41,317 nucleotides of DNA. Origin: Escherichia phage vB_EcoS_HSE2. A program made the translations under genes and the position numbers. The stretch lies in sequence record MG252615.1; one strand, given 5' to 3'. The notes under the pieces are model-generated. The model did no database searches and was not told where the DNA came from. It worked only from the letters and a program-made list of their open reading frames with translations. Each line of letters starts with the position of its first letter. The first letter of the stretch is position 1. Positions 15,223-35,193 of the stretch are shown here, in pieces.

Positions 15223-15251
15223 TTGCACACCCCAACATAATAGGTTACTAT
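15223..15251 (+). promoter_or_regulatory. Middle-class promoter (conserved 30-nt family) with operator palindrome
   Basis: TTGCAC-ACCCCAACATAATAGGT-TACTAT; palindrome AATAGG-TT-ACTATT (15239..15252). Confidence 0.6.
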
Positions 15252-15370
15252 TCACTTATCGAGGCGAGGCAGGGAGCCAACCTTTAATAAGGTCAGTAGC
15301 GGCGACGAGCATACGAAGAGTCGATAAGCCCGGTAAGCAGAACCTAAATTAACTAAGAGAGAAAAGCTGG

Positions 15371-15688
15371 ATGAAAAAGTTAATCGCAGCAGTAGCAATT
15401 TTATTTTCAGTAAACGCAACGGCAGTGGATATGGATGCATGTGAAGCATTCGCGGATATTACTAAATGGGTTGGAGTGCAGCGTGATATGGGGATTAGTC
15501 AGTCTACTATTTATATGGAACTGCTGGATATTACCTCGAAGAAGAACACAAGCAAAGAAGTTAAAAAACTTCTTAATACAACCGCTTTTAGCGCGACAAA
15601 AATAGCATTTGCGTTGAGCGATAAGTCGCCAGGGGAACTTTATACATGGACATACAACGAATGTGTAAAACACAACGGCAGCGAATAA
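15371..15688 (+). CDS. Secreted/periplasmic protein with signal peptide (105 aa)
   Basis: N-terminal MKKLIAAVAILFSVNATA signal-like sequence; first gene after the middle promoter. Confidence 0.5.
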   Translation: MKKLIAAVAILFSVNATAVDMDACEAFADITKWVGVQRDMGISQSTIYMELLDITSKKNTSKEVKKLLNTTAFSATKIAFALSDKSPGELYTWTYNECVKHNGSE

Positions 15689-15727
15689 TGATGCTCGTGC
15701 CGACGACTCTGAGGGAGGTTGCCGTGA

Positions 15728-15919
15728 ATGAGAATTCGAATAACTGATGTCGATTATATGCGCCTGCGCGATGGCGACTATTTGTCGCTTAGTTACTGGG
15801 GCGTTGCCGTAGGGGATGAATTTAATGTCACCCGCGCCTATCCAGATATGTTCATTATCAAATGCAACGCTGGGTATGTAGTTGTGTACCCAAGTGAATG
15901 CGAAGTTCTGGAGGACTAA
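15728..15919 (+). CDS. Hypothetical protein (63 aa)
   Basis: ORF with GGGAGG upstream. Confidence 0.4.
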   Translation: MRIRITDVDYMRLRDGDYLSLSYWGVAVGDEFNVTRAYPDMFIIKCNAGYVVVYPSECEVLED

Positions 15920-15922
15920 GTT

Positions 15923-16066
15923 ATGAGAGAAGCATTCGAACGGTGGGCTGTCGTCGAGGGTCTGCCGGTTAACAAAGGTTCAAAGAAAGAGTACCTGAAC
16001 GTTAAGACGCGTCTGGCGTGGCGGGCGTGGAAAGCTGGTGTGCAAGCTGTGATGAATACGAGGTGA
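15923..16066 (+). CDS. Hypothetical protein (47 aa)
   Basis: Hand-translated ORF in the same operon. Confidence 0.3.
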   Translation: MREAFERWAVVEGLPVNKGSKKEYLNVKTRLAWRAWKAGVQAVMNTR

Positions 16067-16069
16067 TTT

Positions 16070-16270
16070 ATGAGTAAGTGGATTAAGTGTAGTGAGCGGA
16101 TGCCCGCTCCTTTCTCTCATGTACTTGTGACTGATGGGGGAGAGGTTGAGATTAAATGGTTCGATGATGATTCGGATGAGTGGGATAGTTGGGATGAATT
16201 CAACTCTGTCATAGACAACGAGGATATAACGCACTGGAGGAAATTGCCTAAACCGCCGAAACTGGTGTAA
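16070..16270 (+). CDS. Hypothetical protein, possibly DUF551-like (66 aa)
   Basis: Acidic Trp-rich C-terminal region with THWRKLP. Confidence 0.4.
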   Translation: MSKWIKCSERMPAPFSHVLVTDGGEVEIKWFDDDSDEWDSWDEFNSVIDNEDITHWRKLPKPPKLV

Positions 16271-16405
16271 CAGGTCAATAGGTTACTATTTGACTGAGTG
16301 ACTTACGCTGCTACACAGCAGCGTACAACTTTAGATTAGTGTCGTCAAAAAGCGACACTTTCACCGAACGCAACAATAGAAGCGATTATTGCAGGAGATG
16401 CAACA

Positions 16406-16576
16406 ATGAAACTGAATGACATCGTGACCTGGGCCGGTAGAAACGGAGAAAAGCGATTCGGGCTTATTGTTGCGTCAGACGGCAACAAGTACCGTGTTAT
16501 GCGATGGCGTCAGTGGGCGCGACGCCCGAGGTACTACTGGATTCGCAGTGAACGATTATCTTTAAAACACCAATAA
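16406..16576 (+). CDS. Hypothetical basic protein (56 aa)
   Basis: Hand-translated ORF preceded by GGAGA. Confidence 0.35.
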   Translation: MKLNDIVTWAGRNGEKRFGLIVASDGNKYRVMRWRQWARRPRYYWIRSERLSLKHQ

Positions 16577-16583
16577 AATTTAC

Positions 16584-16612
16584 TTGCACACTAAGATAGA
16601 ATAGGCTACTAT
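16584..16612 (+). promoter_or_regulatory. Middle-class promoter with operator palindrome
   Basis: TTGCAC, 17-nt spacer, TACTAT; AATAGG-CT-ACTATT (16600..16613). Confidence 0.6.
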
Positions 16613-16643
16613 TCATTTACACAAACGAGAAGAGAGACAGAAG

Positions 16644-16811
16644 ATGAAAGCAGTAACTAAAGATGAGTTTTTCAGCACAGTAGAAGGTCTTATGTATCAC
16701 ATGGTTATTAATGCGGGTACGCCAGAGTCTATCTACATAGATAGCGGTAATAATCTTGTCGCTAAAGCAACATGGGGTTACCCGGAAACTTTGTATGAGG
16801 TTGCGCAATGA
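16644..16811 (+). CDS. Hypothetical protein (55 aa)
   Basis: Hand-translated ORF; ATGA overlap to next gene. Confidence 0.35.
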   Translation: MKAVTKDEFFSTVEGLMYHMVINAGTPESIYIDSGNNLVAKATWGYPETLYEVAQ

Positions 16812-17035
16812 CCCCCGCAAAAGCACGTGCGCTGTTACGCCGCAAGGGGATTCTCGATGAGGTGGACATCCTTGTAGAGAGATACGGCATCCACATGATA
16901 GGTCGCCAGTCGAAAGGTGATATGCGTTGGATGGCGGGTATCCCTGGTACGCCAGGCGTGTCATACGGCGACACATTAACCCATGCGGTCCATACTTACA
17001 TTATTGAGTCGGTGTTAGGAGAAACCAATGAGTAA
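16808..17035 (+). CDS. Hypothetical protein (75 aa)
   Basis: ORF track. Confidence 0.4.
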   Translation: MTPAKARALLRRKGILDEVDILVERYGIHMIGRQSKGDMRWMAGIPGTPGVSYGDTLTHAVHTYIIESVLGETNE

Positions 17036-17384
17036 CAAAAACGAAGTATTCAAGTACCTGATTGACCGGCTACGGCAGCAGGTAATTAACAACCCATACA
17101 AACAACAGTGTGAAGACCTGGCGCATGAGGTGCAGTCACTTAAGAATCAGTTACGTGATGCTTCGGTGCAGATTAAGGAGCTACATCTGGCGCTGGTTAA
17201 GGCTGCCGGTGATGTAGAGGCTTACAAACTTATCCGCAAGGGTGGGTACGTCAATGGCGGTCGGCGATATGTAGTAGGTGAGCACGGGCTGGAGCAATCC
17301 GGTTGCCAAATAGGTGAGCATGATTGGGTGTTAGACGCCGACGAGGATTATTTTGTGTGCCGCAGATGTGGGGAAACGACATGA
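17028..17384 (+). CDS. Hypothetical coiled-coil protein with C-terminal CxxC zinc ribbon (118 aa)
   Basis: Heptad-like region and CRRCGE. Confidence 0.4.
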   Translation: MSNKNEVFKYLIDRLRQQVINNPYKQQCEDLAHEVQSLKNQLRDASVQIKELHLALVKAAGDVEAYKLIRKGGYVNGGRRYVVGEHGLEQSGCQIGEHDWVLDADEDYFVCRRCGETT

Positions 17385-17584
17385 CCAGCATCTTATTTAT
17401 ATGGGTACTGTCCGCGGGCCAGATGCAACTCGCGGCAGCAGAAACGTTTTACTCGATGGAGGCGTGCCAGTCAGCGGCACGTGCCGCAGAGAACGCGCAC
17501 TTTCTGTTTCAGGGTGATAAGCCCAACGATTCAGAGGTACGCGCTATCTGCTCACTTAAGCGACTTGGTAAACAGGAGAAGTGA
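17381..17584 (+). CDS. Hypothetical small protein with hydrophobic N-terminus (67 aa)
   Basis: ATG at 17381 overlaps upstream stop (ATGA). Confidence 0.35.
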   Translation: MTSILFIWVLSAGQMQLAAAETFYSMEACQSAARAAENAHFLFQGDKPNDSEVRAICSLKRLGKQEK

Positions 17585-17586
17585 TT

Positions 17587-17841
17587 ATGGTACAGAGATA
17601 TAACGCTTCATATAACGACTATTATGAAAACGATGCCGGTGAGTTTGTAAGTTATGAAGACTATGCGAAACTCGAAGCAGATTTTAAGGCGTACAAAGCC
17701 TCTGCTTACATGGTTGCAGAGCAGTATGCGGGGGTGATTAAGGAACTCGAAGCCGAGTTACAGAAATACAAAGACCAGTTCCCGGATTACGTCGAGTGCG
17801 CGAACTGTGGGTCAGTTACACATGTGGAAGAGGTGGAGTGA
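17587..17841 (+). CDS. Small Zn-ribbon protein, paralog A (MVQRY...YEDYAKLEA)
   Basis: AGGAGAA Shine-Dalgarno; shares N-terminal motif and a 15-nt start-region repeat with the next gene. Confidence 0.45.
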   Translation: MVQRYNASYNDYYENDAGEFVSYEDYAKLEADFKAYKASAYMVAEQYAGVIKELEAELQKYKDQFPDYVECANCGSVTHVEEVE

Positions 17842-18044
17842 TGGTACAGAGATATGAAAACGACCACGGCGATATGTTTCAGGCCACGGAAGGTGATTTT
17901 GTCCGCTATGAAGATTACGCAAAACTTGAGGCCGCCGTTATCGCATTACTCGTGGATATAAATCGACGCTACCCGGGTGAAGGATTTAAGTGCCCGTTAA
18001 TACTTAAACTTGCGGAGATTGTGGAACATGAGCCTCGCAACTGA
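17841..18044 (+). CDS. Small protein, paralog B (MVQRY...YEDYAKLEA)
   Basis: Starts with the same ATGGTACAGAGATAT as paralog A. Confidence 0.45.
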   Translation: MVQRYENDHGDMFQATEGDFVRYEDYAKLEAAVIALLVDINRRYPGEGFKCPLILKLAEIVEHEPRN

Positions 18045-18309
18045 CATCCTGAAACGAAGCGGCCTTGCGCCGCTGTCGCCTAAAGTTAAGACGCGAGCGC
18101 GTAACGCAACTTACAATGAACTGGCAGAACGGCGTAAAGCTGTCCGCGCCTGTGGATTCCAGAACGGGAAGGCCGTGAATCTCGGTGAGTTTAAAACACA
18201 GGAACGCGCAGCTATCGCTAATCGGCTATTTAATTACTGGAAATCGCTGGGGTACGATGATATTCCAACGAAACCGCAGAGACGACAATACATCTGGAGA
18301 CATAAATAA
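18028..18309 (+). CDS. Hypothetical basic protein
   Basis: ORF track; start site uncertain (18010 or 18028). Confidence 0.35.
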   Translation: MSLATDILKRSGLAPLSPKVKTRARNATYNELAERRKAVRACGFQNGKAVNLGEFKTQERAAIANRLFNYWKSLGYDDIPTKPQRRQYIWRHK

Positions 18310-18384
18310 ACCGTTATTAAGATAATTCTTACACGTGGTATCCTCCAGTTACCGCATACTTAATACGCACCTGGAGGATTCATC

Positions 18385-18693
18385 TTGGATAAATTTACTG
18401 AAACAGTGACAGGCTGGCTTCTCGCTGCCGCACTCGCCGGTGGGGTAATAGGACTAAGGCAACATAAGTCCGTTATTTCTGGCCCCATCGACGGCTTCTG
18501 CTTTATCGCAACTGGCTTCACCTGCGCCGTGTTTGGCGCACCTCTTGCCGCCCAATGGTTCGGCATTACGGGTGAGCGTGAGATAGCCGGCCTCGGATTT
18601 ATCATCGCTATTCTCTGGATGCCTATCTATTCCCGCCTCTCTGGTATCGTTGCCGGAGAATACATCGCACGCCGAGGGGGTACAGATGAATGA
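18385..18693 (+). CDS. Putative holin (three hydrophobic segments, TTG start)
   Basis: GGAGGA then 6 nt then TTG; three predicted TM-like stretches; just upstream of endolysin. Confidence 0.45.
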   Translation: MDKFTETVTGWLLAAALAGGVIGLRQHKSVISGPIDGFCFIATGFTCAVFGAPLAAQWFGITGEREIAGLGFIIAILWMPIYSRLSGIVAGEYIARRGGTDE

Positions 18694-18958
18694 GTTATTC
18701 TGGTTCGGCGGTATGCTGGCAATCGGAGGCACATCGCTGTTTAATGTGTACCACCCCAGCGTGGACGACGGGCTGTTTGGTCGGGTGCTCTATATCCTGA
18801 CCGCTATCGTCTGCGTCGCCGGATGCATCCACCTGTTACAGGGCAGCATGTCCCCGACGTTGCCTGAGACATTAATCACATTAGTTGCGCTGCGTCAGAT
18901 TCGCCAGGCGTGGCTGTCGTATGGAGGACATAAGCGTGTCTCGAAATATTTCAGATAA
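18686..18958 (+). CDS. Putative holin/antiholin membrane protein (two hydrophobic segments)
   Basis: GAGGGGG Shine-Dalgarno; hydrophobic; overlaps both neighbours. Confidence 0.45.
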   Translation: MNELFWFGGMLAIGGTSLFNVYHPSVDDGLFGRVLYILTAIVCVAGCIHLLQGSMSPTLPETLITLVALRQIRQAWLSYGGHKRVSKYFR

Positions 18959-19421
18959 TGGATTGCATTTTACCGCTGCGTTCGAGGGGTTCCGTGGAAC
19001 CGCGTATCGCGCGACACCGAACGAGAAGTACCTGACTATAGGCTATGGTCACTACGGACCTGACGTAACGCCCGGCAAGACCATCACCCCAGGGCAGGGT
19101 CTCCTGCTACTGAATCGCGATATGGCTAAGGCTGTAGCTGCGGTTGACGCTGCGGCGCACCATTCACTGACACAGGCGCAGTTCGACGCTGTTTGCGACC
19201 TGGTGTATAACGCGGGCGCCGGTGTGATTGCAGCTACCACCGGCACGGGTAAGGCACTGCGTTCTGGTGATACTGCAACACTGCGGGCTAAGCTGGCACT
19301 GTTCATCAACCAGAACGGCAAACCACTACTTGGCCTACGTCGCCGTACAGCCGGGCGGCTGGCATTGTTCAACGGTAAACCGTGGCAAGAGGCGGAGGCT
19401 ATTGGGAGGGCCGTTAAATGA
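18936..19421 (+). CDS. Endolysin, T4-lysozyme-like (glycoside hydrolase family 24)
   Basis: Catalytic region FEGFRG..Y...T.GYGH characteristic of phage lysozymes; GGAGGA before GTG 18936. Confidence 0.8.
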   Translation: MSRNISDNGLHFTAAFEGFRGTAYRATPNEKYLTIGYGHYGPDVTPGKTITPGQGLLLLNRDMAKAVAAVDAAAHHSLTQAQFDAVCDLVYNAGAGVIAATTGTGKALRSGDTATLRAKLALFINQNGKPLLGLRRRTAGRLALFNGKPWQEAEAIGRAVK

Positions 19422-19498
19422 CAGAGTTTGACTTCATTTTCCTGGCTATTGGAGCTGGTGCGATTTGGGGTGTGATTGACGCTCTCCGTAAAGGTTGA
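19418..19498 (+). CDS. Tiny hydrophobic peptide (26 aa) overlapping endolysin stop
   Basis: Verified by hand: MTEFDFIFLAIGAGAIWGVIDALRKG; ATGA overlap. Confidence 0.3.
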   Translation: MTEFDFIFLAIGAGAIWGVIDALRKG

Positions 19499-19562
19499 CA
19501 CCTAAGACTAATCCGACGATACTTAAATCACCTCCTGTTCCATCCCTCTGCTCTCCAGTTTT

Positions 19563-19594
19563 ATCCCGGCCCTGACCCAGCCGGGATTTTTTTT
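19563..19594 (+). terminator. Rho-independent terminator after the lysis genes
   Basis: Stem ATCCCGGC/GCCGGGAT followed by an 8-T run. Confidence 0.75.
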
Positions 19595-19616
19595 ATCTAT
19601 TTTCTGTAATGACTAG

Positions 19617-19645
19617 TTGACTATTACCTACGACCCTACTATATT
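19617..19645 (+). promoter_or_regulatory. Sigma70-type promoter for the small-gene chain
   Basis: TTGACT, 17 nt, TATATT. Confidence 0.55.
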
Positions 19646-19678
19646 TACTTCATAGACAACGAGAACGGAGTAGAGAAG

Positions 19679-19828
19679 ATGAAAATCACAGATATCGAAG
19701 CATTCAAAGACGCACAACTGATGGCTCGCATCGCCGTTAGTAACCTGAGCAACAGTATTCCAGCGGACGCGTTCTGGTTCGCTGCGATGCAGACACTAAA
19801 AGCAGCTTATGCAGGAGAGAAGAAATGA
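19679..19828 (+). CDS. Hypothetical small protein (49 aa)
   Basis: Codon-by-codon check; ATGA coupling to next ORF. Confidence 0.4.
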   Translation: MKITDIEAFKDAQLMARIAVSNLSNSIPADAFWFAAMQTLKAAYAGEKK

Positions 19829-19977
19829 CAGTCTATGTCGTAGAAGGGCGTAACGAATATGAAGACCCCGAGGTATTGGGTGTGTTCGGTGCCGAGAAAT
19901 CGGCGAAGCACTTTGTTGACATGGAACAGGGCACTTACGACTTTTTCTCAGTTACAGAATGGGAGGTACAACAATGA
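19825..19977 (+). CDS. Hypothetical small protein (50 aa)
   Basis: Codon-by-codon check; ATGA coupling. Confidence 0.4.
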   Translation: MTVYVVEGRNEYEDPEVLGVFGAEKSAKHFVDMEQGTYDFFSVTEWEVQQ

Positions 19978-20132
19978 GTGAACACGGTGAAGTAAGTCAA
20001 CCATTACGAGTAGGGCGTAAAGTCAGTCACACCCCGTTCCCGACACGCGAGGAACTGATGAAACGTAACAGTTTCCCCGGGCCGGACAAGAACAAGTATC
20101 TCAATCGCATGTGGGGAGAGCGTAAAGAATGA
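19974..20132 (+). CDS. Hypothetical small protein (52 aa)
   Basis: ATGA coupling. Confidence 0.4.
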   Translation: MSEHGEVSQPLRVGRKVSHTPFPTREELMKRNSFPGPDKNKYLNRMWGERKE

Positions 20133-20302
20133 CTAACAACGAATATGAGAAAGCATGCGTCGAATCCGCGACCGGTGAATCTGAAATAGCGTGGATTGAC
20201 GCCAACATCGAGCACTACCTACGGCAAGTAGACATCCTTATGGAACGACGCCGTGAACTGATTAACCGCATCAACCTGAACAAAGGTGATACTAATGCCT
20301 AA
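20129..20302 (+). CDS. Hypothetical small protein (57 aa)
   Basis: ATGA coupling. Confidence 0.4.
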   Translation: MTNNEYEKACVESATGESEIAWIDANIEHYLRQVDILMERRRELINRINLNKGDTNA

Positions 20303-20534
20303 AATCACAATCGCGTCACTCGAGCGCCGTATTATGGTGCTTGAGTCAGAGAAACAGACGTTAGGCGGGCAACTGTCAATTAACGGTGAGTTTCAACTGG
20401 AGGCGTTTAAGTTGTTGCTTGAGCGCATGAAAGCGGACGAAAAGCCTTGCGTACATGACTACTACCTACATGTGGTTGGTGGACTACGTAGAGCAACGTG
20501 CATTAAGTGCGGTGAAACGTATGGGGTCGCCTGA
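20295..20534 (+). CDS. Hypothetical coiled-coil protein with CxxC...C.KC zinc ribbon (79 aa)
   Basis: ORF track; overlapping start. Confidence 0.4.
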   Translation: MPKITIASLERRIMVLESEKQTLGGQLSINGEFQLEAFKLLLERMKADEKPCVHDYYLHVVGGLRRATCIKCGETYGVA

Positions 20535-20703
20535 GCCAGTAGTTATCGATGGCGTCCTGTGGAAACCTTACTCGGTTAACCACATCGACGCCGACGGGAA
20601 GAAGTTCAGCTTCTACATTTTTGCAATTAGCCGTGAGCACGCCGCCTGTGTGGTAGATGATATACGAGAAACGGCGTGGCTTGGTGATGAGATAGTGGGG
20701 TGA
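20521..20703 (+). CDS. Hypothetical small protein (60 aa)
   Basis: ORF track; start chosen at internal ATG. Confidence 0.35.
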   Translation: MGSPEPVVIDGVLWKPYSVNHIDADGKKFSFYIFAISREHAACVVDDIRETAWLGDEIVG

Positions 20704-20705
20704 GT

Positions 20706-24688: not shown

Positions 24689-24712
24689 ATAGCCCCGAAA
24701 GGGGCTTTCTTA
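24689..24712 (+). terminator. Hairpin terminator/attenuator after portal
   Basis: Stem AGCCCC/GGGGCT with GAAA loop, then TTCTT. Confidence 0.5.
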
Positions 24713-24716
24713 TAGT

Positions 24717-25793
24717 ATGCTATTAACTTTAGCGCCACAGGGTTTATCTATGAGCTTACTTACATCCCTAATCAGCCACCAGATTTGGCTGCAACGCACC
24801 GCATCCGGCGAAGTGAAAGACCTCGCACCGTTCGTCCAGGAGATGCGGGACGAAATAAAACGGCAGGTGCTGTTATTTGGCGACGACGGGCGAAGCACCG
24901 CGCGACTGAATAAACTGTTACGCGACCTCGAAGAAGCACTGGCAGGACTTACCGGTGACTGGCAAACAAAACTGACAGAAGACCTTAAGGAACTGGTGGC
25001 ATATGAGGCTGAGTGGAACGTAAAGACGCTGACGGCTAACGTTAACGCGGAATTTGTTACGCCTACCGCAGAACAGGTGTGGGCCGCTGCCGAGTTTCAA
25101 CCCTTATCGTTAAGCGACAAACCTGTCGACTTCACCAAGCTGATGTCTGGCTGGGGTGAAACCGAAGTCGCGCGCCTTGTAACCGGCGTTAAGATGGGCT
25201 TCGTACAAGGCCAAACCACACGGCAGATTGTTAAGAATGTCGTAGGCGCTGGTGGGCTGGCGGACATTTCAGAACGCAACGCGGCTACAGTAATCCGCAC
25301 TGCGCTGTCCCACGTATCCAACGAAGCCCGCAACGAGACGTACCGCCAGAACGACGACATCATCGAGAAATACGAATGGGTGTCAACTCTGGACAGCCGT
25401 ACAAGCACGATTTGCAGAGCCAGGGACGGGATGACGTGGGAAATTGGTAAAGGGCCAATGCCCCCCGCCCATCCGAATTGTCGAAGTACCACTGCACCAG
25501 TAATCAGTTCCGAGTTCGACTTCCTCGATAAAGGCGCAAAACGCGCGGCTAAGGGCGCAGAAGGCGGTACTCAGGTAAGCGCAGACACCACTTACTACGA
25601 GTTCCTGAAACAACAACCAGCATGGTTTCAGGATGAAGCACTCGGCCCTGTTCGCGGTAAGATTTTCCGTAACAGCGGTATATCGCCGGAAGAGTTTCGC
25701 GTAATATCTGTAGATGGTTTCGGGAATCCACTGACACTTAAGCAGATGGCGGAACTCGATAAACGTGTTGCTGAATATCTGAAAGGGGATTAA
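24717..25793 (+). CDS. Head morphogenesis protein (Mu F / SPP1 gp7-like)
   Basis: Conserved DSRTS..C...HPNCR segment typical of this family; start may be the internal ATG at 24750. Confidence 0.65.
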   Translation: MLLTLAPQGLSMSLLTSLISHQIWLQRTASGEVKDLAPFVQEMRDEIKRQVLLFGDDGRSTARLNKLLRDLEEALAGLTGDWQTKLTEDLKELVAYEAEWNVKTLTANVNAEFVTPTAEQVWAAAEFQPLSLSDKPVDFTKLMSGWGETEVARLVTGVKMGFVQGQTTRQIVKNVVGAGGLADISERNAATVIRTALSHVSNEARNETYRQNDDIIEKYEWVSTLDSRTSTICRARDGMTWEIGKGPMPPAHPNCRSTTAPVISSEFDFLDKGAKRAAKGAEGGTQVSADTTYYEFLKQQPAWFQDEALGPVRGKIFRNSGISPEEFRVISVDGFGNPLTLKQMAELDKRVAEYLKGD

Positions 25794-26255: not shown

Positions 26256-26285
26256 AAAAAGCCCCGCTATGGGGCTTTATTTTTA
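26256..26285. terminator. Bidirectional intrinsic terminator
   Basis: Stem AAAAGCCCC/GGGGCTTTT, loop GCTAT, A-run before and T-run after. Confidence 0.7.
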
Positions 26286-26354
26286 TATGAACATCGCGGT
26301 GATAGCCGCAGCCGATACCCACAAAACAAAATAAAACATCACACTATTTGTCAT
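26283..26354 (-). CDS. Hydrophobic peptide (23 aa), third gene of lipoprotein cassette
   Basis: Verified by hand: MTNSVMFYFVLWVSAAAITAMFI; ATGA overlap with lipoprotein stop. Confidence 0.25.
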   Translation of the reverse strand: MTNSVMFYFVLWVSAAAITAMFI

Positions 26355-26695
26355 TTGCATTTCTCGTCGTATGTTTGTTGTAACTGCGACAGACGATTAC
26401 CGGCTGTCATCTCGTCCATAGAAGGCCCGGCGCCCGTGTCCATAAAGAACAGCGGAACAATCAGGAATGCGCCTGTAACACCGAGTACAACGTTAGTACC
26501 TATTTGCTTATTAACACGGTGCGTAGCGTTGGCTTGAGCTTGTTTTGTCGTGGCGATTCTCGATAGTAACTGATTACATGTTGCCGTTGTATCCCCTGCC
26601 TGATAAACCTGTAAAGCCGGGTCTGGCAACGACCTTACGCAACCACTCAAACAAACGGCTACAACACCCGCTACTGCTAATTTAATATATTTCAT
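26351..26695 (-). CDS. Lipoprotein (114 aa) in a moron cassette; candidate superinfection-exclusion / receptor-masking factor
   Basis: Signal peptide with lipobox L-S-G-C; opposite strand to flanking head genes; own promoter and terminator. Confidence 0.55.
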   Translation of the reverse strand: MKYIKLAVAGVVAVCLSGCVRSLPDPALQVYQAGDTTATCNQLLSRIATTKQAQANATHRVNKQIGTNVVLGVTGAFLIVPLFFMDTGAGPSMDEMTAGNRLSQLQQTYDEKCK

Positions 26696-26793
26696 AGTTC
26701 ACCATTACCCGTGTCAATTTCACCAATACCACTACAAGCCCAAAGAAACATCACCGCATCAACTGCAATTACTACTGAAATAACGACTAACAT
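26692..26793 (-). CDS. Small transmembrane peptide (33 aa), first gene of lipoprotein cassette
   Basis: Verified by hand: MLVVISVVIAVDAVMFLWACSGIGEIDTGNGEL; GAGGAGG Shine-Dalgarno; ATGA overlap. Confidence 0.3.
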   Translation of the reverse strand: MLVVISVVIAVDAVMFLWACSGIGEIDTGNGEL

Positions 26794-26820
26794 GACGGCC
26801 TCCTCGGTTCGATAGAATGA

Positions 26821-26849
26821 ATAGTACCCTATTATATTGGGGTGCGCAA
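26821..26849 (-). promoter_or_regulatory. Middle-class promoter driving the lipoprotein cassette
   Basis: Minus strand TTGCGC-ACCCCAATATAATAGGG-TACTAT; 30-nt core identical to the promoter at 35165..35193. Confidence 0.6.
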
Positions 26850-26915
26850 ACTATTTGTTTATGTATTCCAGTTATTCCACCAAATTGTAAATATTGGAAT
26901 AAACTATTCGAATAG

Positions 26916-26944
26916 TTGACTTTTCACCAAAAATGTGCTAAGCT
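26916..26944 (+). promoter_or_regulatory. Sigma70-type promoter preceded by 16-bp palindrome AACTATTCGAATAGTT
   Basis: TTGACT, 17 nt, TAAGCT; palindrome at 26902..26917. Confidence 0.45.
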
Positions 26945-27150
26945 CCACCTGAGCTTGTGAAGTATGAACAAGCGACCGCGGCGTGGCAGGTAACGGAGCC
27001 GGACGTTAAGTCCGAGTGTAGTTACGCTGACGCGTTCGGAAGGGCCATACTCTATTGCTTGTGTAAAAAGTAACTGGTTTACTGAGATTACGCCGTTTCT
27101 ATGTTTAAATGATAAGGACTAGCGCCCCGCTTTATGGCGGGGCTTTACTT
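26945..27150 (+). ncRNA. Candidate small RNA or structured leader (about 200 nt) between promoter and terminator-like hairpin
   Basis: No ORF longer than 9 codons; starts after the 26916..26944 promoter and ends at hairpin 27124..27143 plus U-rich tail. Confidence 0.3.
27121..27150 (+). terminator. Terminator-like hairpin just upstream of the spanin RBS
   Basis: Stem GCCCCGC/GCGGGGC, loop TTTATG, then TTTACTTAT. Confidence 0.45.
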
Positions 27151-27554: not shown

Positions 27555-27663
27555 CGACGCGGACGAGGATTTGGCTATCGACGTTCAGAACGCCGAATGT
27601 GTGCGGCAACTGAGGCTGAAAGTGTTCATGCTGCAGGATTACGTGAGGAATATTCTGGAATAG
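27400..27663 (+). CDS. o-spanin (Rz1-like outer-membrane lipoprotein), overlapping Rz
   Basis: Lipobox L-A-S-C followed by Pro-rich mature region; starts inside Rz in another frame and extends beyond its stop. Confidence 0.55.
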   Translation: MKSLSTLKHLAVACALLTMLASCSSPAPSQTPIPSPDTTMMQPPCKLAPPSSDADEDLAIDVQNAECVRQLRLKVFMLQDYVRNILE

Positions 27664-27742
27664 TTGCCTTGCATGTTGGAATAATTTATTCTTGACATGT
27701 AAATCCGGGTGGCCCGGGTTCCAACGTCCAGGGGACATACTG

Positions 27743-28369
27743 ATGAGCGAAGAAGTGAAAGACGAAACTATCGAACAACAAGAGACTAAGACCACGTTTA
27801 CCAAAGAAGAAGTTGACGCGCTGGTATCCGGTCTTAAAGCTAACAACGAGAAACTCTTGTCTGAAAAGAAAGCTGCTGCCGCTGCCGCTAAAGAAGCCGC
27901 AGATGCGAAGCTGAAAGCCGAACAGGAACGCGCAAAACAGAACGGCGAACTTGAGGCATTCGAGAAAACGTTGCGCAGTCAGTATGAGCCAGTACTCGCC
28001 GAGAAAGACGGTAAGATTAGCAAAATGGCTGAGCGTATCCTCGGCGCAGAACGTAAATCAGTTATCAGCCAGTTGTCTGGCATGTTGATTGATGAGAGCG
28101 CAGCAGATATCATCGCTATGATGGTCAAGACCGAATTTGACGGCGATGACGTTGTGACCAAGTTCACAGGTGCAGACGGTAATGTCATCACCACCGACGC
28201 AGAGCAATTTAAAAAGTATCTGCGTGAGCACAAAGCATTTTCGCATCTGATTAAAGCAGATGCAGCAACCGGCGGCGGGGCTTCCGGTAACAAGAATTCT
28301 ACTGGCGGGGCCGGTGGTGCGGACGTAATCCAGCAAAAACTTAACGCCAAATACGGCAAACGAGGATAA
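27743..28369 (+). CDS. Scaffolding protein
   Basis: Ala/Lys/Glu-rich helical protein immediately upstream of major capsid gene; AGGGGA Shine-Dalgarno. Confidence 0.55.
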   Translation: MSEEVKDETIEQQETKTTFTKEEVDALVSGLKANNEKLLSEKKAAAAAAKEAADAKLKAEQERAKQNGELEAFEKTLRSQYEPVLAEKDGKISKMAERILGAERKSVISQLSGMLIDESAADIIAMMVKTEFDGDDVVTKFTGADGNVITTDAEQFKKYLREHKAFSHLIKADAATGGGASGNKNSTGGAGGADVIQQKLNAKYGKRG

Positions 28370-29344: not shown

Positions 29345-29363
29345 CACGGTTAGTAGTAAAAAC

Positions 29364-29386
29364 AAAGGGGCTTCGGCCCCTTTTTA
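29364..29386 (+). terminator. Rho-independent terminator (UUCG tetraloop hairpin)
   Basis: GGGGC-TTCG-GCCCC flanked by AAA/TTTTT. Confidence 0.7.
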
Positions 29387-29401
29387 CTAGGAGAAATTAA
29401 A

Positions 29402-29569: not shown

Positions 29570-29572
29570 TTT

Positions 29573-30085
29573 ATGCCGCTAATCGTGGAAACGGGGGCAA
29601 TCGTCCCGAATGCCGACAGTTACGTTAGTCTGGCTGACGCCCGCGCGTTAGCGGCTAATTATGGCCTTGAGCTACCTGCGGATGGTACCGCCGCCGAAGT
29701 CGCCTTGCGCAACGGCGCAACTTATGTCGGGCTTGCGGAACCGCAGATGTGTGGTCGTCGTGTATCCGCCGAACAGTCTCTGGCATATCCTCGCACCGGG
29801 GTAACGTTAAACGGATTCCCGGTAGCGGATAATGTTATCCCGAAACAGGTAATTCTTGCGCAGGTAATCGCCTCCGCCACATATGGCGCGGGCACGGAAG
29901 TGCGGGCCAACTCTGACGGGCGTTCCGTGCAGACTGAGCGTGTTGAGGGCGCAGTAACAGTGACATACTTCAACAACGGCAGCAGTGGCGCTACAACCGC
30001 GATTACCGCTGCGGACGACGCCTTACGCCCGTTACTGTGTGGTGGTCTTAACAATGGCTTCTCATTTAATGTGTACCGGGGTTAA
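29573..30085 (+). CDS. Putative head-tail connector/adaptor protein
   Basis: Gene order after capsid; size 170 aa. Confidence 0.45.
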   Translation: MPLIVETGAIVPNADSYVSLADARALAANYGLELPADGTAAEVALRNGATYVGLAEPQMCGRRVSAEQSLAYPRTGVTLNGFPVADNVIPKQVILAQVIASATYGAGTEVRANSDGRSVQTERVEGAVTVTYFNNGSSGATTAITAADDALRPLLCGGLNNGFSFNVYRG

Positions 30086-30087
30086 AA

Positions 30088-30702
30088 ATGGCGAAGACTA
30101 AATCAGAGATGTTCACCCTCATCGGCGCGAATCTCCCCGATAACACCAACGGTGCCATCACACCCGCGAAGCTACGCGAGGTAATGACGCAGATGGCGGA
30201 CTCACCTATTTACGCCACTCCCGGTGTTAAAGAGGTTGAAGTTCTCCGCGCAGCGTCGACCGTGATACAAGTGCCCACCGCAACGAACACGGCGTTGCAG
30301 TTAACTTTTGGCTCCGCTCAGGGCAGCGCGTCTGACCCGGTAATGATTAATGCCGCGGGGCTGGTCACATTCAACGCCGCAGGTAACTACGCCGTTCGCA
30401 TCAAGTTACAGGCTGGTCGTACAGGGGCAAGTGGCACGTCCATACTGTTATCGCGCATTCTCCTTAACGGTGCTCAGTACGGCTCGCCCGCCGCCACGAA
30501 ACTGGTAAGCGCGGACACCACAATCCCGATTGAGTCCCGCGTAGTTATTAACCCCACCGCGGGCCAGACGTTTGCCGTTCAGATTATGCGAGATAGCGCC
30601 GGAAGCAACTTCGGAGGCGTATACCCGCAAGCGGCTACCGTAACCGCATGGGGTACAGCGCCGTCCGCATTACTGGTTATCTCTAGACTGGAGGCCGCCT
30701 GA
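30088..30702 (+). CDS. Hypothetical structural protein (204 aa)
   Basis: Gene order in head/neck module. Confidence 0.4.
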   Translation: MAKTKSEMFTLIGANLPDNTNGAITPAKLREVMTQMADSPIYATPGVKEVEVLRAASTVIQVPTATNTALQLTFGSAQGSASDPVMINAAGLVTFNAAGNYAVRIKLQAGRTGASGTSILLSRILLNGAQYGSPAATKLVSADTTIPIESRVVINPTAGQTFAVQIMRDSAGSNFGGVYPQAATVTAWGTAPSALLVISRLEAA

Positions 30703-31061
30703 TGAGCACCGCTTTCAGTAAACGTATGCAGGGCGTTGGTACACGCCTGTTAACCAAATTCGGTAGCACAGTATCTCTTGTTCGTGCTGGCTCTAAAGTG
30801 TGGGATGAAGTTCTCGGTGAGTACGTCTGGTCCGACGATGAAGTGCTGCCGTTGAAGGCCGTTCCGGTTCCGGTAAACGCTGGGCTGGTGAACGGTACGA
30901 CGATTCAGGCTGGTGACATGATTGTTAAAGCGGATTACAGCGTCGTTCCGAAGATGGAAGACAAGGTGCAATTCGGCGGCGAGCAATGGTCTGTTGTCGC
31001 CATTGAGAAGAAGATGGTTAACGATGATGTCGTGGCCTACTTTATCCAGGTGAGAAAATGA
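30702..31061 (+). CDS. Putative head-tail joining (head closure) protein
   Basis: Gene order and size (119 aa). Confidence 0.4.
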   Translation: MSTAFSKRMQGVGTRLLTKFGSTVSLVRAGSKVWDEVLGEYVWSDDEVLPLKAVPVPVNAGLVNGTTIQAGDMIVKADYSVVPKMEDKVQFGGEQWSVVAIEKKMVNDDVVAYFIQVRK

Positions 31062-31453
31062 GTTTCGCGCTTGATGTCTCTAAGTTCGTGGAAAAGGCGA
31101 AGAAGAATCCCGAGAAGGTGATGCGTCAGGTGTCTATCAAGCTGTTTTCCGCTATCATAAAGGCGAGTCCGGTGGATACAGGCCGCTTTCGTATGAACTG
31201 GATGGCATCTGGCGGTACTCCTGCTTCCTGGATTACGGACGCCACCGATAAATCAGGAAATACGGCAGCCGGAAACGCTACAAGTTTCGTGCTGAAAGCC
31301 GCTGACTGGCACGAGTTCACGCTGACAAATAATCTACCGTATGCGCAACGGCTGGAGTATGGTTGGTCGCAACAGGCCCCCGCCGGGGTTGTCAGGACTA
31401 ACGTGTCCCGCTTCCAGCAACTCATTAACGAAGAAGCCAACAAGGTGAAATGA
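31058..31453 (+). CDS. Neck/tail-completion protein (HK97 gp10-like)
   Basis: Motif PVDTGRFRMNW typical of this family. Confidence 0.5.
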   Translation: MSFALDVSKFVEKAKKNPEKVMRQVSIKLFSAIIKASPVDTGRFRMNWMASGGTPASWITDATDKSGNTAAGNATSFVLKAADWHEFTLTNNLPYAQRLEYGWSQQAPAGVVRTNVSRFQQLINEEANKVK

Positions 31454-31866
31454 TGGGCTACTTTGAGGACTTAACAAAAGCGTTCGATGTGCCGCTGGTA
31501 GCATTCGGGGCTGCAAACAGCATCAAGGTTGCGCTTGAAAACATCGACGCGCCGACGTCAACCGATACGCCGTATCTGGCAAGTTACATGTTGCTGGCAG
31601 ATACCGAGCAGGCGGATTTGTTCTTCACGGAACAACGCTCAGGTGTTTATCAGGTCGACATTAACTACGCATCGGTGAAAGGTAGCGCGCCAATCAATAA
31701 AATGGCAGACTTACTTAACACGGCGTTTAAAGCAGGTAAGTCATTTTCGCGTAACGACATCTGCGCCGAGGTTCAATCGGTTAGCCTGGGGCCGCTGATT
31801 GTAGAAAACGGATGGGCCAAACGACCATTGTCAATTAACTTTATTGCATTCACCAAGAGGCTGTGA
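31450..31866 (+). CDS. Putative tail terminator protein
   Basis: Gene order immediately upstream of major tail protein. Confidence 0.4.
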   Translation: MMGYFEDLTKAFDVPLVAFGAANSIKVALENIDAPTSTDTPYLASYMLLADTEQADLFFTEQRSGVYQVDINYASVKGSAPINKMADLLNTAFKAGKSFSRNDICAEVQSVSLGPLIVENGWAKRPLSINFIAFTKRL

Positions 31867-33035
31867 ATATGGCTACAACTCCTTTTAAGGGCGCGAATAC
31901 CGCGCAATTCTATGTGGCGGAAGTGACCCCCGGCGTAACACCAAGTAACCCGGTATGGTCGCCGCTGCGTAACACAGGCGGCGTTCCTGCCATCACCCGT
32001 GACACGCTGACCTCCAACGAACTGGACGGCAGCCGCGAAACTACATCCATCCGCACCGGTAACAAGCAGGTTAGCGGTGAATATGCTATTGAGCTTAGCT
32101 CGAAAAGCCAGGATGACTGGCTAGCCGGGGCTTTAGGCTCTACGTGGCAGGCTGGCGTATCTCTGTCAGGGCTATCGATTACCGTCGCACCGGCTGGCAA
32201 GACGTTCACACGCGCTACCGGCAGTTTTATCACTGACGGAGTTGGGGTAGGCGACCTGATTGCGTTTACCGACTTAACAGGCGATAACGCAAAACCATTT
32301 ATTGTTACTGCAGTAACGGATACGGTTGTTACTGGTGCAGGCATCCAACACACCCTGACCACCGGGACAAAAACTAGTAAGGCTAAAACTGGCGACACGT
32401 TGGAAACCGGTAACGCGTGTAAGACGTTCTCTATCCTTACCTGGTACAAAGGCCAGTGCGGCGGTACTGATGCGTACACGTTAACCAAAGGCGTGGAAGT
32501 TTCTGGTTTTACCATCGAACAGGCTGTTAACGCGATGGTAACTGGCAGCTTCCCATTCATCGGTCGCAGTCAGGAGATTCTCACCACGCCGCCGACCGGT
32601 TCCAACTTCTCATCTGTTACTTTTGGTGATGAGCCGTTCTCTTCGGTTGACGTTTCCGTATTCGATGGTTCTACACCGTTGCGTTGCGACAGCCTAACCA
32701 TCACCAACGACAACAGCGCGTCCGCACAGTTCGAACTCGGCAACACTAACGTTGCGTTTGTGGAGCGTAGCCGCGCAGCTAACACCTTTTCCATCTCCGG
32801 TAAGTTGTACGACATGGCGATGATTCAGAAGTTTATCAACGAGCAACAGGTTGAGATTAACTCTATTCTGGCGGGGGTAAACGGGGCTATGTCTTTCAGC
32901 CTGAAACGCGCAGAGCTTACGGCGGTTACGCCAGAAATATCTGGCCCGGAATCAATTACCCAAAGTATAGAAGGGCAGTCCACAGGCAACCAGTATCAGT
33001 CGTCTATCGTAATTCAACGTATTAGTTACGTATAA
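31863..33035 (+). CDS. Major tail (tube) protein
   Basis: 390-aa Thr/Gly/Ser-rich ORF followed by strong terminator; upstream of chaperone and tape-measure genes. Confidence 0.6.
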   Translation: MNMATTPFKGANTAQFYVAEVTPGVTPSNPVWSPLRNTGGVPAITRDTLTSNELDGSRETTSIRTGNKQVSGEYAIELSSKSQDDWLAGALGSTWQAGVSLSGLSITVAPAGKTFTRATGSFITDGVGVGDLIAFTDLTGDNAKPFIVTAVTDTVVTGAGIQHTLTTGTKTSKAKTGDTLETGNACKTFSILTWYKGQCGGTDAYTLTKGVEVSGFTIEQAVNAMVTGSFPFIGRSQEILTTPPTGSNFSSVTFGDEPFSSVDVSVFDGSTPLRCDSLTITNDNSASAQFELGNTNVAFVERSRAANTFSISGKLYDMAMIQKFINEQQVEINSILAGVNGAMSFSLKRAELTAVTPEISGPESITQSIEGQSTGNQYQSSIVIQRISYV

Positions 33036-33062
33036 AACTAAGGCCCCGAAAGGGGCCTTTTC
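33036..33062. terminator. Bidirectional terminator, near-identical to the one at 3361..3387
   Basis: AAGGCCCC-GAAA-GGGGCCTT plus T-run; A-rich upstream. Confidence 0.7.
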
Positions 33063-33293
33063 TCACTCATCAATGTTACTCCTGTATTCTCGTAACTTCT
33101 CCAGGCTTTCAATTGCTTCTGCTAAGTCGGTTCCAGTGTCCTTGTGCCCTCGAAGGCCCATACACAATAGCTTCTTCAATGCGTGCTGTAACGCAGGGTC
33201 GCGGATGTCGAAAGCACGTAGCACATCGTAAACGTCTACAGTCATAGTGCTGCCGTGAGTGTTTGTCATTGTGCGGTTGTATTTTGAAGTCAT
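33063..33293 (-). CDS. Hypothetical protein (76 aa), last gene of leftward cassette
   Basis: ORF track. Confidence 0.4.
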   Translation of the reverse strand: MTSKYNRTMTNTHGSTMTVDVYDVLRAFDIRDPALQHALKKLLCMGLRGHKDTGTDLAEAIESLEKLREYRSNIDE

Positions 33294-33306
33294 AAATCAC
33301 TTTTCC

Positions 33307-33777
33307 CTACTCATGGTTTTCATGGAAACCGTATTTACTCTCGGCGGCTTTACGCGCAGCAACCGCTACATCAAAATCGTCGTAAAGCCCTAAATGCACT
33401 TGTTTGTAGTTAACTTTTATAAACGCGCGCCACTTACCCGCGGCTTTGTGGAAACTTACGCCTGTAGCCCCGGATTTATTTATCTTTCGCATAGTTTTAT
33501 TTTTACTGTTCCCTGTATTGTCGGTGGCGCGTAGATTTTCTATTCTATTGTCTAGCCTGTTATGGTTTATGTGGTCTATTTGAGTTTTCCTGTCTAAGTT
33601 GCATTTATTATAAAGACACCATGCTATGCGGTGGACATACACTGTTTTACCACCCATACCGCAGCACAGATAACCTCTTACACCAACCGTACCAACCTCA
33701 GCACCAGTAGATAACCTGGTAACCCTCCCAGTCTCAGGGCAGTATTTAAATTGTTTTGAAACATCAAGATATTTCAT
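33307..33777 (-). CDS. HNH homing endonuclease with AP2 domain (paralog of 9184..9675)
   Basis: HNH motif IDHINHNRLDNRIEN; AP2-like GATGVSFHKAAGKWRAFIKV...AARKAAESKYGFHENHE. Confidence 0.75.
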   Translation of the reverse strand: MKYLDVSKQFKYCPETGRVTRLSTGAEVGTVGVRGYLCCGMGGKTVYVHRIAWCLYNKCNLDRKTQIDHINHNRLDNRIENLRATDNTGNSKNKTMRKINKSGATGVSFHKAAGKWRAFIKVNYKQVHLGLYDDFDVAVAARKAAESKYGFHENHE

Positions 33778-34904
33778 CTTAGCATCTCCGGTGAGATTGA
33801 AAGCCTACCTACTTCCCCGAACTCTGAACTATAGGTTATGACATTAGCGGACCTCTTAGACATCCACCCGCCGCGAGAAGCATATGCATCTTTCGCCGCG
33901 AGAGTGCGATGCTGCTCCACTACCATATTCCTACTTTCTACGATCTTTTGGTGGTGGAGATGCCCAACATGTGCATAACTGTACTCGCTTTCGCCGAATG
34001 CTTTTCTGAACTTAGCTATCATAATGGGTTCGACCACCTCAAACCGGCATTTATGCCCGTGTGTAAAGAACAGAGTCGTTTTGCCGTGTTGCACCATCTT
34101 GTAAACATCCGGCGACGTATCGACGAACACACGCGGCTCATTGTCATATAGCGTGCTGAACATCTCAGCTAACCAAATCATTCCGCTTTCGTCGTGGTTA
34201 CCTTGAACGATTAAAAGTTTTACTGTGTGATGCTTAACCAGCGCCATATCGACAACACGACGCACCATACGAATCATGTAGCGAACTAGTTTCTGATAGC
34301 GAGTATCGGCGTCTAACACATGACGCGACTCAGGGGTAACGGCATCAAGACTATCGAAGTGCGCGAAGTCTCCTAGCAGATTAATAACTCCTGTTCCCGC
34401 GTCCGGTGCTTTCTGAAACGCCGCGTCGAACCATCGAGAGAACAGGTCTTCTGCAATCTTCATGTCCCAGTCGTCGCCGCTCTCGTCTGCCCATGCAAGC
34501 ATACCGAGATGGAAATCAGACACAGTGTAAAGATTGAGAAGTTTATCGTCGCGTTTGGCGCGAGTCGCTTTAACAGGCGCAACAGGTGTAATCTCTGACT
34601 TCATGCCTTCAATTACGGCTTTCATCAACTCGACCTGACGTTCAGCATCGGTGTCAGTCTTAACCCATTGCAACTTAGTGTTGCCGAACTCGTCCACCAG
34701 GGACGACGTGCCTTTAATCTTGTAGCCGTCCGGCACAAGGTGACTAACGTCGCGCCCGTGGCCTACACCTTTCTTAGCCAGCTTCGCTTTACGGATACGA
34801 ATAACGCGGTCTGAGATGCCGTATTTACGGGCGATATCAATAATCTTCATCCCGGCGTTCAATTCTTCCTGTAACTGTTCGTCGGTTATTTTCTTCTGGG
34901 CCAT
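33774..34904 (-). CDS. Calcineurin-like metallophosphoesterase with N-terminal HTH domain
   Basis: Phosphoesterase motifs DFHLG, GDFAHFD, GNHDE, THGH, GHLHH in canonical order; N-terminal IIDIARKYGISDRVIRIRKAKL helix-turn-helix; GAGGAAG Shine-Dalgarno. Confidence 0.65.
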   Translation of the reverse strand: MAQKKITDEQLQEELNAGMKIIDIARKYGISDRVIRIRKAKLAKKGVGHGRDVSHLVPDGYKIKGTSSLVDEFGNTKLQWVKTDTDAERQVELMKAVIEGMKSEITPVAPVKATRAKRDDKLLNLYTVSDFHLGMLAWADESGDDWDMKIAEDLFSRWFDAAFQKAPDAGTGVINLLGDFAHFDSLDAVTPESRHVLDADTRYQKLVRYMIRMVRRVVDMALVKHHTVKLLIVQGNHDESGMIWLAEMFSTLYDNEPRVFVDTSPDVYKMVQHGKTTLFFTHGHKCRFEVVEPIMIAKFRKAFGESEYSYAHVGHLHHQKIVESRNMVVEQHRTLAAKDAYASRGGWMSKRSANVITYSSEFGEVGRLSISPEMLR

Positions 34905-34942
34905 GCTTACTTCCTCGTGTTTAGGATTTGTCTTATAGTAGC

Positions 34943-35149
34943 CTACTTCTCTTTCACGTTCGAGTTGCAAGCCCAGATTAAAATAAATACCCACGGCAGC
35001 AGAACCCAGCCAAGAAACAGGTTAGCCATGAATATAGCTAACTTCGCTTTATGGTTACGGAAGTACGCAACCAGGAAAGGTGCGAAATAAGCGAGCAGTG
35101 CAAACAGAATTAAGGAAACTGGTAAACTGGACATTTTAAACCCCTTCAT
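34943..35149 (-). CDS. Superinfection-immunity-like small membrane protein (Imm family-like)
   Basis: Two TM segments with R.H..KLAIF..NLFLGW...PW...LIWA, matching my recollection of the Imm-superinfection family consensus. Confidence 0.55.
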   Translation of the reverse strand: MKGFKMSSLPVSLILFALLAYFAPFLVAYFRNHKAKLAIFMANLFLGWVLLPWVFILIWACNSNVKEK

Positions 35150-35164
35150 TGTTGGTGTAAGTGA

Positions 35165-35193
35165 ATAGTACCCTATTATATTGGGGTGTGCAA
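35165..35193 (-). promoter_or_regulatory. Middle-class promoter driving the Imm/phosphoesterase/HNH cassette
   Basis: Minus strand TTGCAC-ACCCCAATATAATAGGG-TACTAT; transcription start only about 9 nt before the Imm ATG. Confidence 0.6.

Follow-up and report, generated by a model that had tools for sequence, protein, structure and literature searches.

A 14-bp dyad dispersed over sigma-70-type promoters of a Kagunavirus is probably the operator of a Cro-like repressor

Phages of the genera Kagunavirus and Jerseyvirus are common isolates in work on therapy and food safety, and the control of their transcription is little understood. Here, we report an analysis of repeated promoter-like sequences in Escherichia phage vB_EcoS_HSE2 (record MG252615.1), a virulent siphophage of Escherichia coli whose 41.3-kb sequence (41,317 nt in full; hereafter, the window) covers essentially the entire genome of this Kagunavirus (Guernseyvirinae). 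Four of these sequences, which we denote B1–B4, combine the hexamers TTGCAC (or TTGCGC) and TACTAT with the inverted repeat AATAG-N4-CTATT (the dyad), and we find that the same 14-bp dyad recurs in a second promoter layout and at syntenic positions across genera of related phages. The B sites are probably host-type sigma-70 promoters in which the dyad serves as the operator of a 71-amino-acid (aa) Cro-like repressor of the XRE family encoded in the window. By mechanism, the dyad network would most likely be a Cro-type repressor–operator regulon, a known kind of phage circuit. The window is most similar to Escherichia phage BUCT823 (96–98% identity), and its gene map was carried over from the annotation of phage BUCT789.

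A first-pass annotation of the window had placed copies of TTGCAC-N17-TACTAT at 15223 (+), 16584 (+), 26849 (−) and 35193 (−). These coordinates proved exact, except that the −35 element of B3 reads TTGCGC (Table 1). It had also described the dyad as overlapping the −10 element, and TACTAT does occupy dyad positions 8–13. When a 29-mer spanning the promoter is sought with at most one mismatch, three copies are found (B1, B3 and B4) against 0.00 expected; B2 has only the −35, the dyad and the −10 in common with it, its upstream spacer being different (more than three mismatches). The two minus-strand copies had been called identical over about 30 nt; they agree at 31 of 32 positions, 27 of them in an unbroken run, so that the earlier wording was slightly generous. 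The B-type hexamers agree with the sigma-70 consensus at 7 of 12 positions, including the key −10 positions A2 and T6. A ribosome-binding site and an ATG follow 26–40 nt past the dyad at B2, B3 and B4 and in the relatives' copies of B1, the start codon lying 26–30 nt past the dyad at B2 and B3. B1 occupies the divergent gap between the leftward helicase–primase operon and the rightward small-gene operon, and its syntenic copies in about 35 relatives are followed by the leader cacttATCGAAACGAGAcagAGGAG and an ATG. B2, whose neighbouring genes are all on the plus strand, is followed by the leader acaAACGAGAAGAGAGA and an ATG at 16644; it is kept in relatives, and the first gene behind it varies. 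Because the −35/−10 spacing is constantly 17 bp, ribosome-binding sites and start codons lie downstream, the sites head units that end in terminators and their synteny extends across genera, we strongly infer, in agreement with the first-pass annotation, that the B sites are promoters.

Two other readings of the B-site hexamers were considered and dropped. A −10-like yATAAT lies just upstream of TACTAT, and an acceptable −35 to match it is present only at B4 (ATCACA); this hexamer is not shared by B1 or B3, and we therefore stayed with TTGCAC paired to TACTAT. A sigma-32-like reading of CTTGCAC...CCCCAA was dropped on spacing, which is 1 nt here and 13–15 nt in sigma-32 promoters. Between the predicted transcription start and the ATG, most dyad promoters across genera carry a leader of the type (T)ATCGAAACGAGAGGAG, seen in the window at 16617–16640, 11726–11757 (−), 26795–26815 (−) and 19646–19678 and in many relatives; a leader of this type also follows the promoter at 19617, which has no dyad. 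The leader may be a common signal, read in translation or at the RNA level, or it may simply have travelled with the promoter by inheritance.

The dyad itself is strongly over-represented. The window holds eight exact copies against 0.02 expected, and 13 against 0.95 expected once a single mismatch is allowed. Seven of the exact copies stand in a promoter context, four of them in the B layout and three in a layout that we denote A, TTGACA-N17-TATAGT, in which the dyad lies within the spacer and the hexamers match the sigma-70 consensus at 11 of 12 positions. The eighth, at 16277, is an orphan. The first-pass estimate of at least eight promoters with this dyad thus holds for seven exact dyads, beside which stand the orphan and a one-mismatch dyad (O2) lying over the predicted start of the XRE gene transcript. 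At the orphan, which had been listed as a partial promoter copy at 16261–16289, both the dyad and TACTAT are present and a −35-like hexamer is absent, so that a productive promoter is not credible and the site is probably either a remnant or one more operator. Thirteen nucleotides past the dyad begins a 9-bp hairpin, TACGCTGCT-ACAC-AGCAGCGTA, and this dyad-plus-hairpin module recurs in eight distinct sequences from relatives, in some of which a tandem GGTGTAACAGGT-GGTGTAACAGGT precedes it. The orphan dyad is always accompanied by the hairpin at the same distance, in the window as in loci L002, L006, L015, L019 and L036, and the two look like a small conserved module.

To place these sites in a wider context, about 170 loci of related phages were gathered by searches with three proteins, the helicase–primase, the phosphoesterase and the XRE protein; together with whole genomes that were fetched, they yielded 237 distinct dyad sites. 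(Loci L083–L095, retrieved with the phosphoesterase, belong to Dhillonvirus; they are without the dyad and uninformative.) The dyad sites are syntenic across the related loci, and 127 of the 237 have the B layout and 91 the A layout. In the B layout, the −10 is TACTAT in 127 of 127 distinct sequences, and the −35 is TTGCAC in 81, TTGCGC in 14 and TTGCAG in 11, together 106 of the 127; downstream, in the same orientation, a leader of type ATCGAAACGAGAGGAG and then an ATG almost always follow. Syntenic sites were also recovered by landmarks, independently of the dyad. These landmarks were usable for A2 and partly for A3, those for B1 and A1 being unspecific or too strict, and the A2 sites found in this way carry an exact dyad in 33 of 38 cases and a dyad with one mismatch in 5.

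Such repetition could in principle reflect descent alone, if promoter cassettes had been copied round the genome and the dyad had no role beyond that of the hexamers. B1, B3 and B4 indeed have 27–32 nt in common, including the spacer ACCCCAAyAT, which suggests duplication. Across genera with proteins only 48–65% identical, however, the dyad arms are kept while the central 4 bp, the flanks and the spacers have drifted; the dyad is the sole element common to the A and B layouts; and other lineages have changed both arms symmetrically. We therefore regard descent without function as very improbable. The position of the dyad relative to the predicted start is informative in this respect. It covers −25 to −12 in the A layout, −19 to −6 in the B layout and −22 to −9 in the Jerseyvirus counterpart of B4, in the Cornellvirus sites and in the lineage of locus L168, and its orientation to the downstream gene flips between A and B; in every promoter copy it nonetheless lies within the core promoter. 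Because the register varies and yet stays within the core promoter, the dyad seems to be an operator for an occluding repressor rather than a contact for an activator or a polymerase. Its size and placement, 14 bp overlapping the −35/−10 zone, are those of Cro/CI-type operators.

The motif was already known under another interpretation. For the Kagunavirus VB_EcoS-Golestan, Table S4 gives TAATAGGGTACTATTCATTA and five similar 20-mers as 'conserved promoters' detected by PHIRE, two of the six lying ahead of a gene annotated Cro (PMC7203180); for the Kagunavirus fBC-Eco01, seven sites with the consensus tgAATAGTa-ccTATTat-T were called phage-RNA-polymerase promoters (PMC9825357). These are the same motif in the same syntenic places as the dyads of the window. 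The two papers list the motif without a tie to −35/−10 hexamers, an operator or a Cro-like protein, and we found no other literature that makes such a tie. The sole Kagunavirus RNA-sequencing study, a temporal series for phage K1B4 (PMC12645636), is too coarse for this purpose, and promoters are not mapped in it. If the 20-mer were a promoter for a phage-encoded or phage-modified RNA polymerase, with the dyad as its recognition sequence, its detection by PHIRE, a tool built to find such promoters, and the label 'Phage RNAP promoter' in fBC-Eco01 (PMC9825357) would be readily explained. Against this, all large open reading frames (ORFs) of the window match non-polymerase proteins of BUCT789, in which no RNA polymerase is annotated, and none was found in the window. 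The dyad moreover takes any of three registers, faces either way with respect to the genes behind it and always stands in a TTGnnn-N17-TAnnnT frame typical of sigma-70. A dedicated polymerase is thus hardly credible, and the phage-polymerase label given to the fBC-Eco01 sites appears to be wrong.

A further reading takes the B sites as promoters that fire both ways, from TACTAT in one direction and from TATrTT on the opposite strand, the dyad being a by-product of overlapping −10 elements. It fits several features of the B sites: B1, B3 and B4 lie in divergent gaps and each has a reverse −10-like TATrTT, B2 lies in a one-way context and is without a reverse −10, a reverse TCGATA-N17/18-TATGTT/TATATT scores 8–9 of 12 at B1 and B3, and the leftward gene 14898–15152 has no other obvious promoter, none that is convincing having been found for it. 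The arms of the dyad themselves, however, form no −10 on the reverse strand, the dyad is also present at A1 and A2, whose contexts are one-way, the reverse −35 is preserved neither in Jerseyvirus nor at B4, and the GC-containing arms found elsewhere (TTAGC-N2-GCTAA) are unable to act as a −10. We consider a dyad of this origin quite unlikely. The first leftward ORF beside B1 (14898–15230, −) could start at a GTG overlapping the B1 −35 (110 aa) or, as in the BUCT789 annotation, at the TTG at 15152 (84 aa); the DNA between the two is unusually conserved, even in the Jerseyvirus locus L028.

The best candidate for the protein that binds the dyad is encoded beside one of the A sites. The 71-aa XRE protein matches Pfam HTH_3 with E = 1.1e-12, above the curated cut-off, falls into PHROG families of transcriptional repressors and has 434 Cro and 434 repressor as its closest solved chains (E = 6e-6 to 1e-5). 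Promoter A3 stands back-to-back with the promoter of the XRE gene, a perfect dyad, O1, lying in the region common to the two, and O2 is kept in all Kagunavirus loci. In Jerseyvirus, the XRE gene has a B-type promoter, TTGCAC-N17-TACTAT, and sites equivalent to O1 and O2 adjoin the gene in Jerseyvirus and in the lineages of loci L168 and L172. Judged by its sequence, the O1/O2 arrangement is a classic self-regulatory layout.

Comparison between lineages supports this assignment, if not cleanly. The XRE protein occurs in all six lineages examined, with a dyad beside its gene in each; the dyads lie at syntenic promoters of the same architecture, they are of four types, and the recognition helix differs in each lineage. 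The dyad is AATAG-N4-CTATT in Kagunavirus (recognition helix SQGAINQ), in Jerseyvirus (SQSLITH) and in Serratia phage Tsm2 (SQGMLNH), AATAC-N4-GTATT in L168/L109 (TQGGIGH), ATTA(G/C)-N4-(G/C)TAAT in the Cornellvirus phages SP-031 and TS6 (TQSAISH) and TTAGC-N2-GCTAA in L172/L173 (SQGYISH). Taken together with the operator-like placement of the dyad and the layout of the XRE gene, these lineage-specific dyads lend support to the idea of an XRE regulon put forward in the first-pass annotation.

The promoters and the operator could also be real and the binder another protein, whether the 56-aa HTH_17 protein, which is the second small helix-turn-helix (HTH) protein of the window, some other small phage protein or a host factor. 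What speaks for another binder is that Kagunavirus and Jerseyvirus use one and the same dyad; between them, the HTH_17 protein is 80–88% identical, whereas the XRE protein is 48% identical and has a changed helix. The HTH_17 protein was found, however, only in Kagunavirus, Jerseyvirus and one intermediate lineage among those compared, and it is absent from Tsm2, Cornellvirus, L168 and L172, four dyad-bearing lineages of which Tsm2 keeps even AATAG-N4-CTATT; on these grounds it was dropped as a candidate. If a host factor were the binder, a change of the dyad between phage lineages on the same enterobacterial hosts would not be expected. The gene with dyads on its flanks, by contrast, is that of the XRE protein in each of the lineages examined. 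A binder other than the XRE protein is therefore unlikely, and the 71-aa protein is the likeliest one on present sequence comparisons.

Several points weigh against the combination of sigma-70 promoters with a Cro-type operator. Jerseyvirus keeps the AATAG half-site with an XRE helix that differs from that of Kagunavirus at four of seven positions, helix residues and dyad bases follow no simple code, and each of the other dyads represents a single lineage. With its flanks included, the motif loses its symmetry (TG-AATAG...CTATT-AT), an unusual feature if a symmetric dimer is to bind it. Finally, the consensus match of the B-type hexamers is modest, and they are overlapped by yATAAT on the same strand and by TATrTT on the opposite strand; therefore start sites, and even direction, could differ at some copies.

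Under the sigma-70 and Cro-type reading, the unmodified host sigma-70 RNA polymerase would start at all A, B and XRE promoters on infection, the B promoters, with their moderate −35 TTGCAC, heading the rightward non-structural operons and two antisense cargo slots. As the Cro-like protein builds up, it would bind the 14-bp operators as a dimer, and the bound dimer would block RNA polymerase, turning down the non-structural operons, both cargo slots and its own gene. Dyad-less promoters would be unaffected, for example TTGACT-N17-TATATT at 19617, which stands ahead of small, terminase and structural genes. Both the choice of binder and the sign of its effect (repression) are here deduced from operator placement and lineage comparison, whereas the anatomy of the sites, their conservation and their co-variation are observed. 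A promoter-like TTGATT-N17-TATACT without a dyad lies at 14814–14842 (−), directly upstream of the HTH_17 gene and the helicase–primase operon; should it prove genuine, the dyad regulon would not include this essential operon. A bolder extension, which we think decidedly doubtful, would make the 71-aa protein a genome-wide timer, B1, B3 and B4 two-way promoter–operator units and the backbone promoters sockets for swapped defence or exclusion genes. If such two-way units are true, one dimer would shut both an early or cargo transcript and the opposing one, that is, the helicase–primase operon at B1 or, at B3, the RNA of an ORF-less stretch described below.

Consistent with the first-pass annotation, the minus-strand copies head cassettes for a lipoprotein and for an Imm protein, a lipobox protein and a PF14373 protein being found behind B3 and B4, respectively. 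B3 is the head of a minus-strand cassette inside the plus-strand structural genes; a PHROG match in its cargo, phrog_13472, is of unassigned function. The superinfection-immunity protein Imm behind B4 matches Pfam PF14373 with E = 9e-13. Its ORF has two in-frame ATGs, with a Shine–Dalgarno sequence (GAAGGGG) only at the second, 35134, which is also far enough from the predicted transcription start; the protein therefore probably starts at 35134 and has 63 rather than 68 aa. In relatives, the B3 promoter is constant and the cargo genes behind it differ, the slot being empty in BUCT789, and B4 recurs in about 40 relatives, where the gene that comes first behind it is of at least four different kinds. 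The first genes behind B3 and B4 together have at least eight different N-termini. Each cassette is thus a promoter–gene–terminator unit between backbone genes that is variable or absent in relatives, as is characteristic of morons. Because the cargo varies while the promoter stays, B3 and B4 are, from these comparisons, moron-type cargo slots whose promoter belongs to the phage backbone. They resemble the morons of temperate phages in being antisense cassettes with terminators inside a structural operon and in their variable cargo (Imm, lipoprotein), and differ from them in that the promoter-plus-operator is backbone and only the cargo changes. Cargo expression is therefore predicted to go with the early programme of the phage, rather than to be autonomous or prophage-driven. 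Two genes resembling homing endonucleases (HNH_3 plus AP2), at 9184–9705 (−) and 33307–33777 (−), lie within dyad-controlled operons, and their presence varies among relatives.

Table 1 Coordinates of promoters, operators and genes in the window
Feature	Coordinates	Strand	Description
Replication and recombination operons	3.4–11.7 kb and 12.1–15.2 kb	leftward	
Small genes and lysis genes	15.3–19.4 kb	rightward	
Structural genes	19.7–41.3 kb	rightward	
Two cassettes breaking into the structural genes	26.3–26.8 kb and 33.0–35.15 kb	−	
A1 promoter	5370–5398	−	TTGACA-N17-TATAGT, dyad 5375–5388; DNA-helicase operon
A2 promoter	9151–9179	−	TTGACA-N17-TATAGT, dyad 9156–9169; operon of single-stranded DNA-binding protein and DNA polymerase I
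A3 promoter	11758–11786	−	TTGACA-N17-TATAGT, dyad 11763–11776 (O1); nuclease operon
XRE gene promoter	11775–11802	+	TTCACA-N16-TAAAAT
O2	11807–11820	+	One-mismatch dyad AATATGGTACTATT, over the predicted start of the XRE promoter
XRE gene	11851–12066	+	71-aa HTH_3 (XRE/Cro-type) protein; terminator 12058–12072
HTH_17 gene	14611–14781		56-aa protein
B1 promoter and operator	15223–15252	+	−35 TTGCAC 15223–15228, −10 TACTAT 15246–15251, dyad 15239–15252; 15223–15251 reads TTGCAC ACCCCAACATAATAGGT TACTAT (spacer 17 bp)
Orphan dyad and hairpin	16277–16325	+	Dyad 16277–16290, hairpin 16304–16325
B2 promoter and operator	16584–16613	+	TTGCAC-N17-TACTAT, dyad 16600–16613; 16584–16612 reads TTGCAC ACTAAGATAGAATAGGC TACTAT
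B3 promoter and operator	26820–26849	−	TTGCGC-N17-TACTAT, dyad 26820–26833; 26821–26849 reads TTGCGC ACCCCAATATAATAGGG TACTAT
B3 cargo	26258–26793	−	33-aa hydrophobic/membrane peptide 26793–26695; 114-aa lipobox (LSGC) protein 26695–26351; at the end, possible 23-aa peptide and two-way terminator 26258–26278
B4 promoter and operator	35164–35193	−	TTGCAC-N17-TACTAT, dyad 35164–35177; 35165–35193 reads TTGCAC ACCCCAATATAATAGGG TACTAT
B4 cargo	33040–35149	−	Imm 34943–35149; calcineurin-like phosphoesterase 33774–34904; HNH–AP2 endonuclease 33307–33777; at the end, 76-aa protein 33063–33293 and terminator 33040–33059

Among known systems, the closest parallel is phage 434. Like 434 Cro and repressor, the XRE protein of the window is a single-domain HTH_3 protein of about 70 aa, and as at 434 OR and OL, operators overlap the core promoter and also lie in the region between the regulator gene and a divergent, regulated promoter. 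The operators of 434 are 14-bp dyads too, arranged in two clusters of three (ACAA-N6-TTGT) in a temperate phage with a CI partner. Here, by contrast, single operators lie over at least eight promoters of a virulent phage, neither an integrase nor a CI-type repressor was found in the window and the sequence identity is low. Dispersed sites, many of them over promoters, are known for P1 C1 (operators), mycobacteriophage L5 gp71 ('stoperators') and phiC31 (inverted repeats), whose regulators are lysogeny-maintaining repressors in temperate phages; the sites of P1 and L5 lack symmetry, and those of L5 also act inside transcription units. The window resembles these systems in that one phage regulator, here a predicted one, would have sites scattered over the whole genome, and differs in that the phage is virulent and its dyads are confined to core promoters, except for the orphan at 16277. 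Although the general understanding of phage regulation is unchanged by such a regulon, the sigma-70 and Cro-type operator reading would yield a map of 8–9 transcription units with a candidate master regulator, and it would account for the way in which Imm and other exclusion genes are found in variable slots whose promoter is constant. In addition, the dyads that differ between lineages form a small natural series for the evolution of HTH specificity.

Some further sequences were noted in the window. One of the one-mismatch dyads, TATAGTATGCTATT at 24711–24724, lies directly past the terminator of the portal gene and overlaps an ATG at 24717, with no −35 ahead of it; its 20-mer is in the PHIRE list of Golestan, as 'before ORF3' (PMC7203180). 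A second motif, GGAATAAYTGGAATA / GAATAATTT, showed no window-wide enrichment, and a scan of the whole window against Rfam returned no family. Divergent from B3, a promoter-like TTGACT-N17-TAAGCT stands at 26915–26943 (+) and corresponds to host promoter HP1 in the fBC-Eco01 paper (PMC9825357). It is followed by about 180 nt without an ORF of at least 50 aa and then by a strong terminator at 27124–27143, just before the spanin gene; the ORF-less stretch 26915–27143, which has no match to an Rfam family, could be a small RNA. Words resembling GGAATA(A/G) occur near B3 (26864–26909), without enrichment of the motif in the window as a whole. At 27655–27745, ahead of the genes for scaffold and capsid, the sequence GGAATAGTTGCC...GGAATAATTTATTC-TTGACA is followed by a hairpin, CCGGGTGGCCCGG; a very similar sequence is present in the Cornellvirus phages SP-031 and TS6, and the region may be one of late-gene control.

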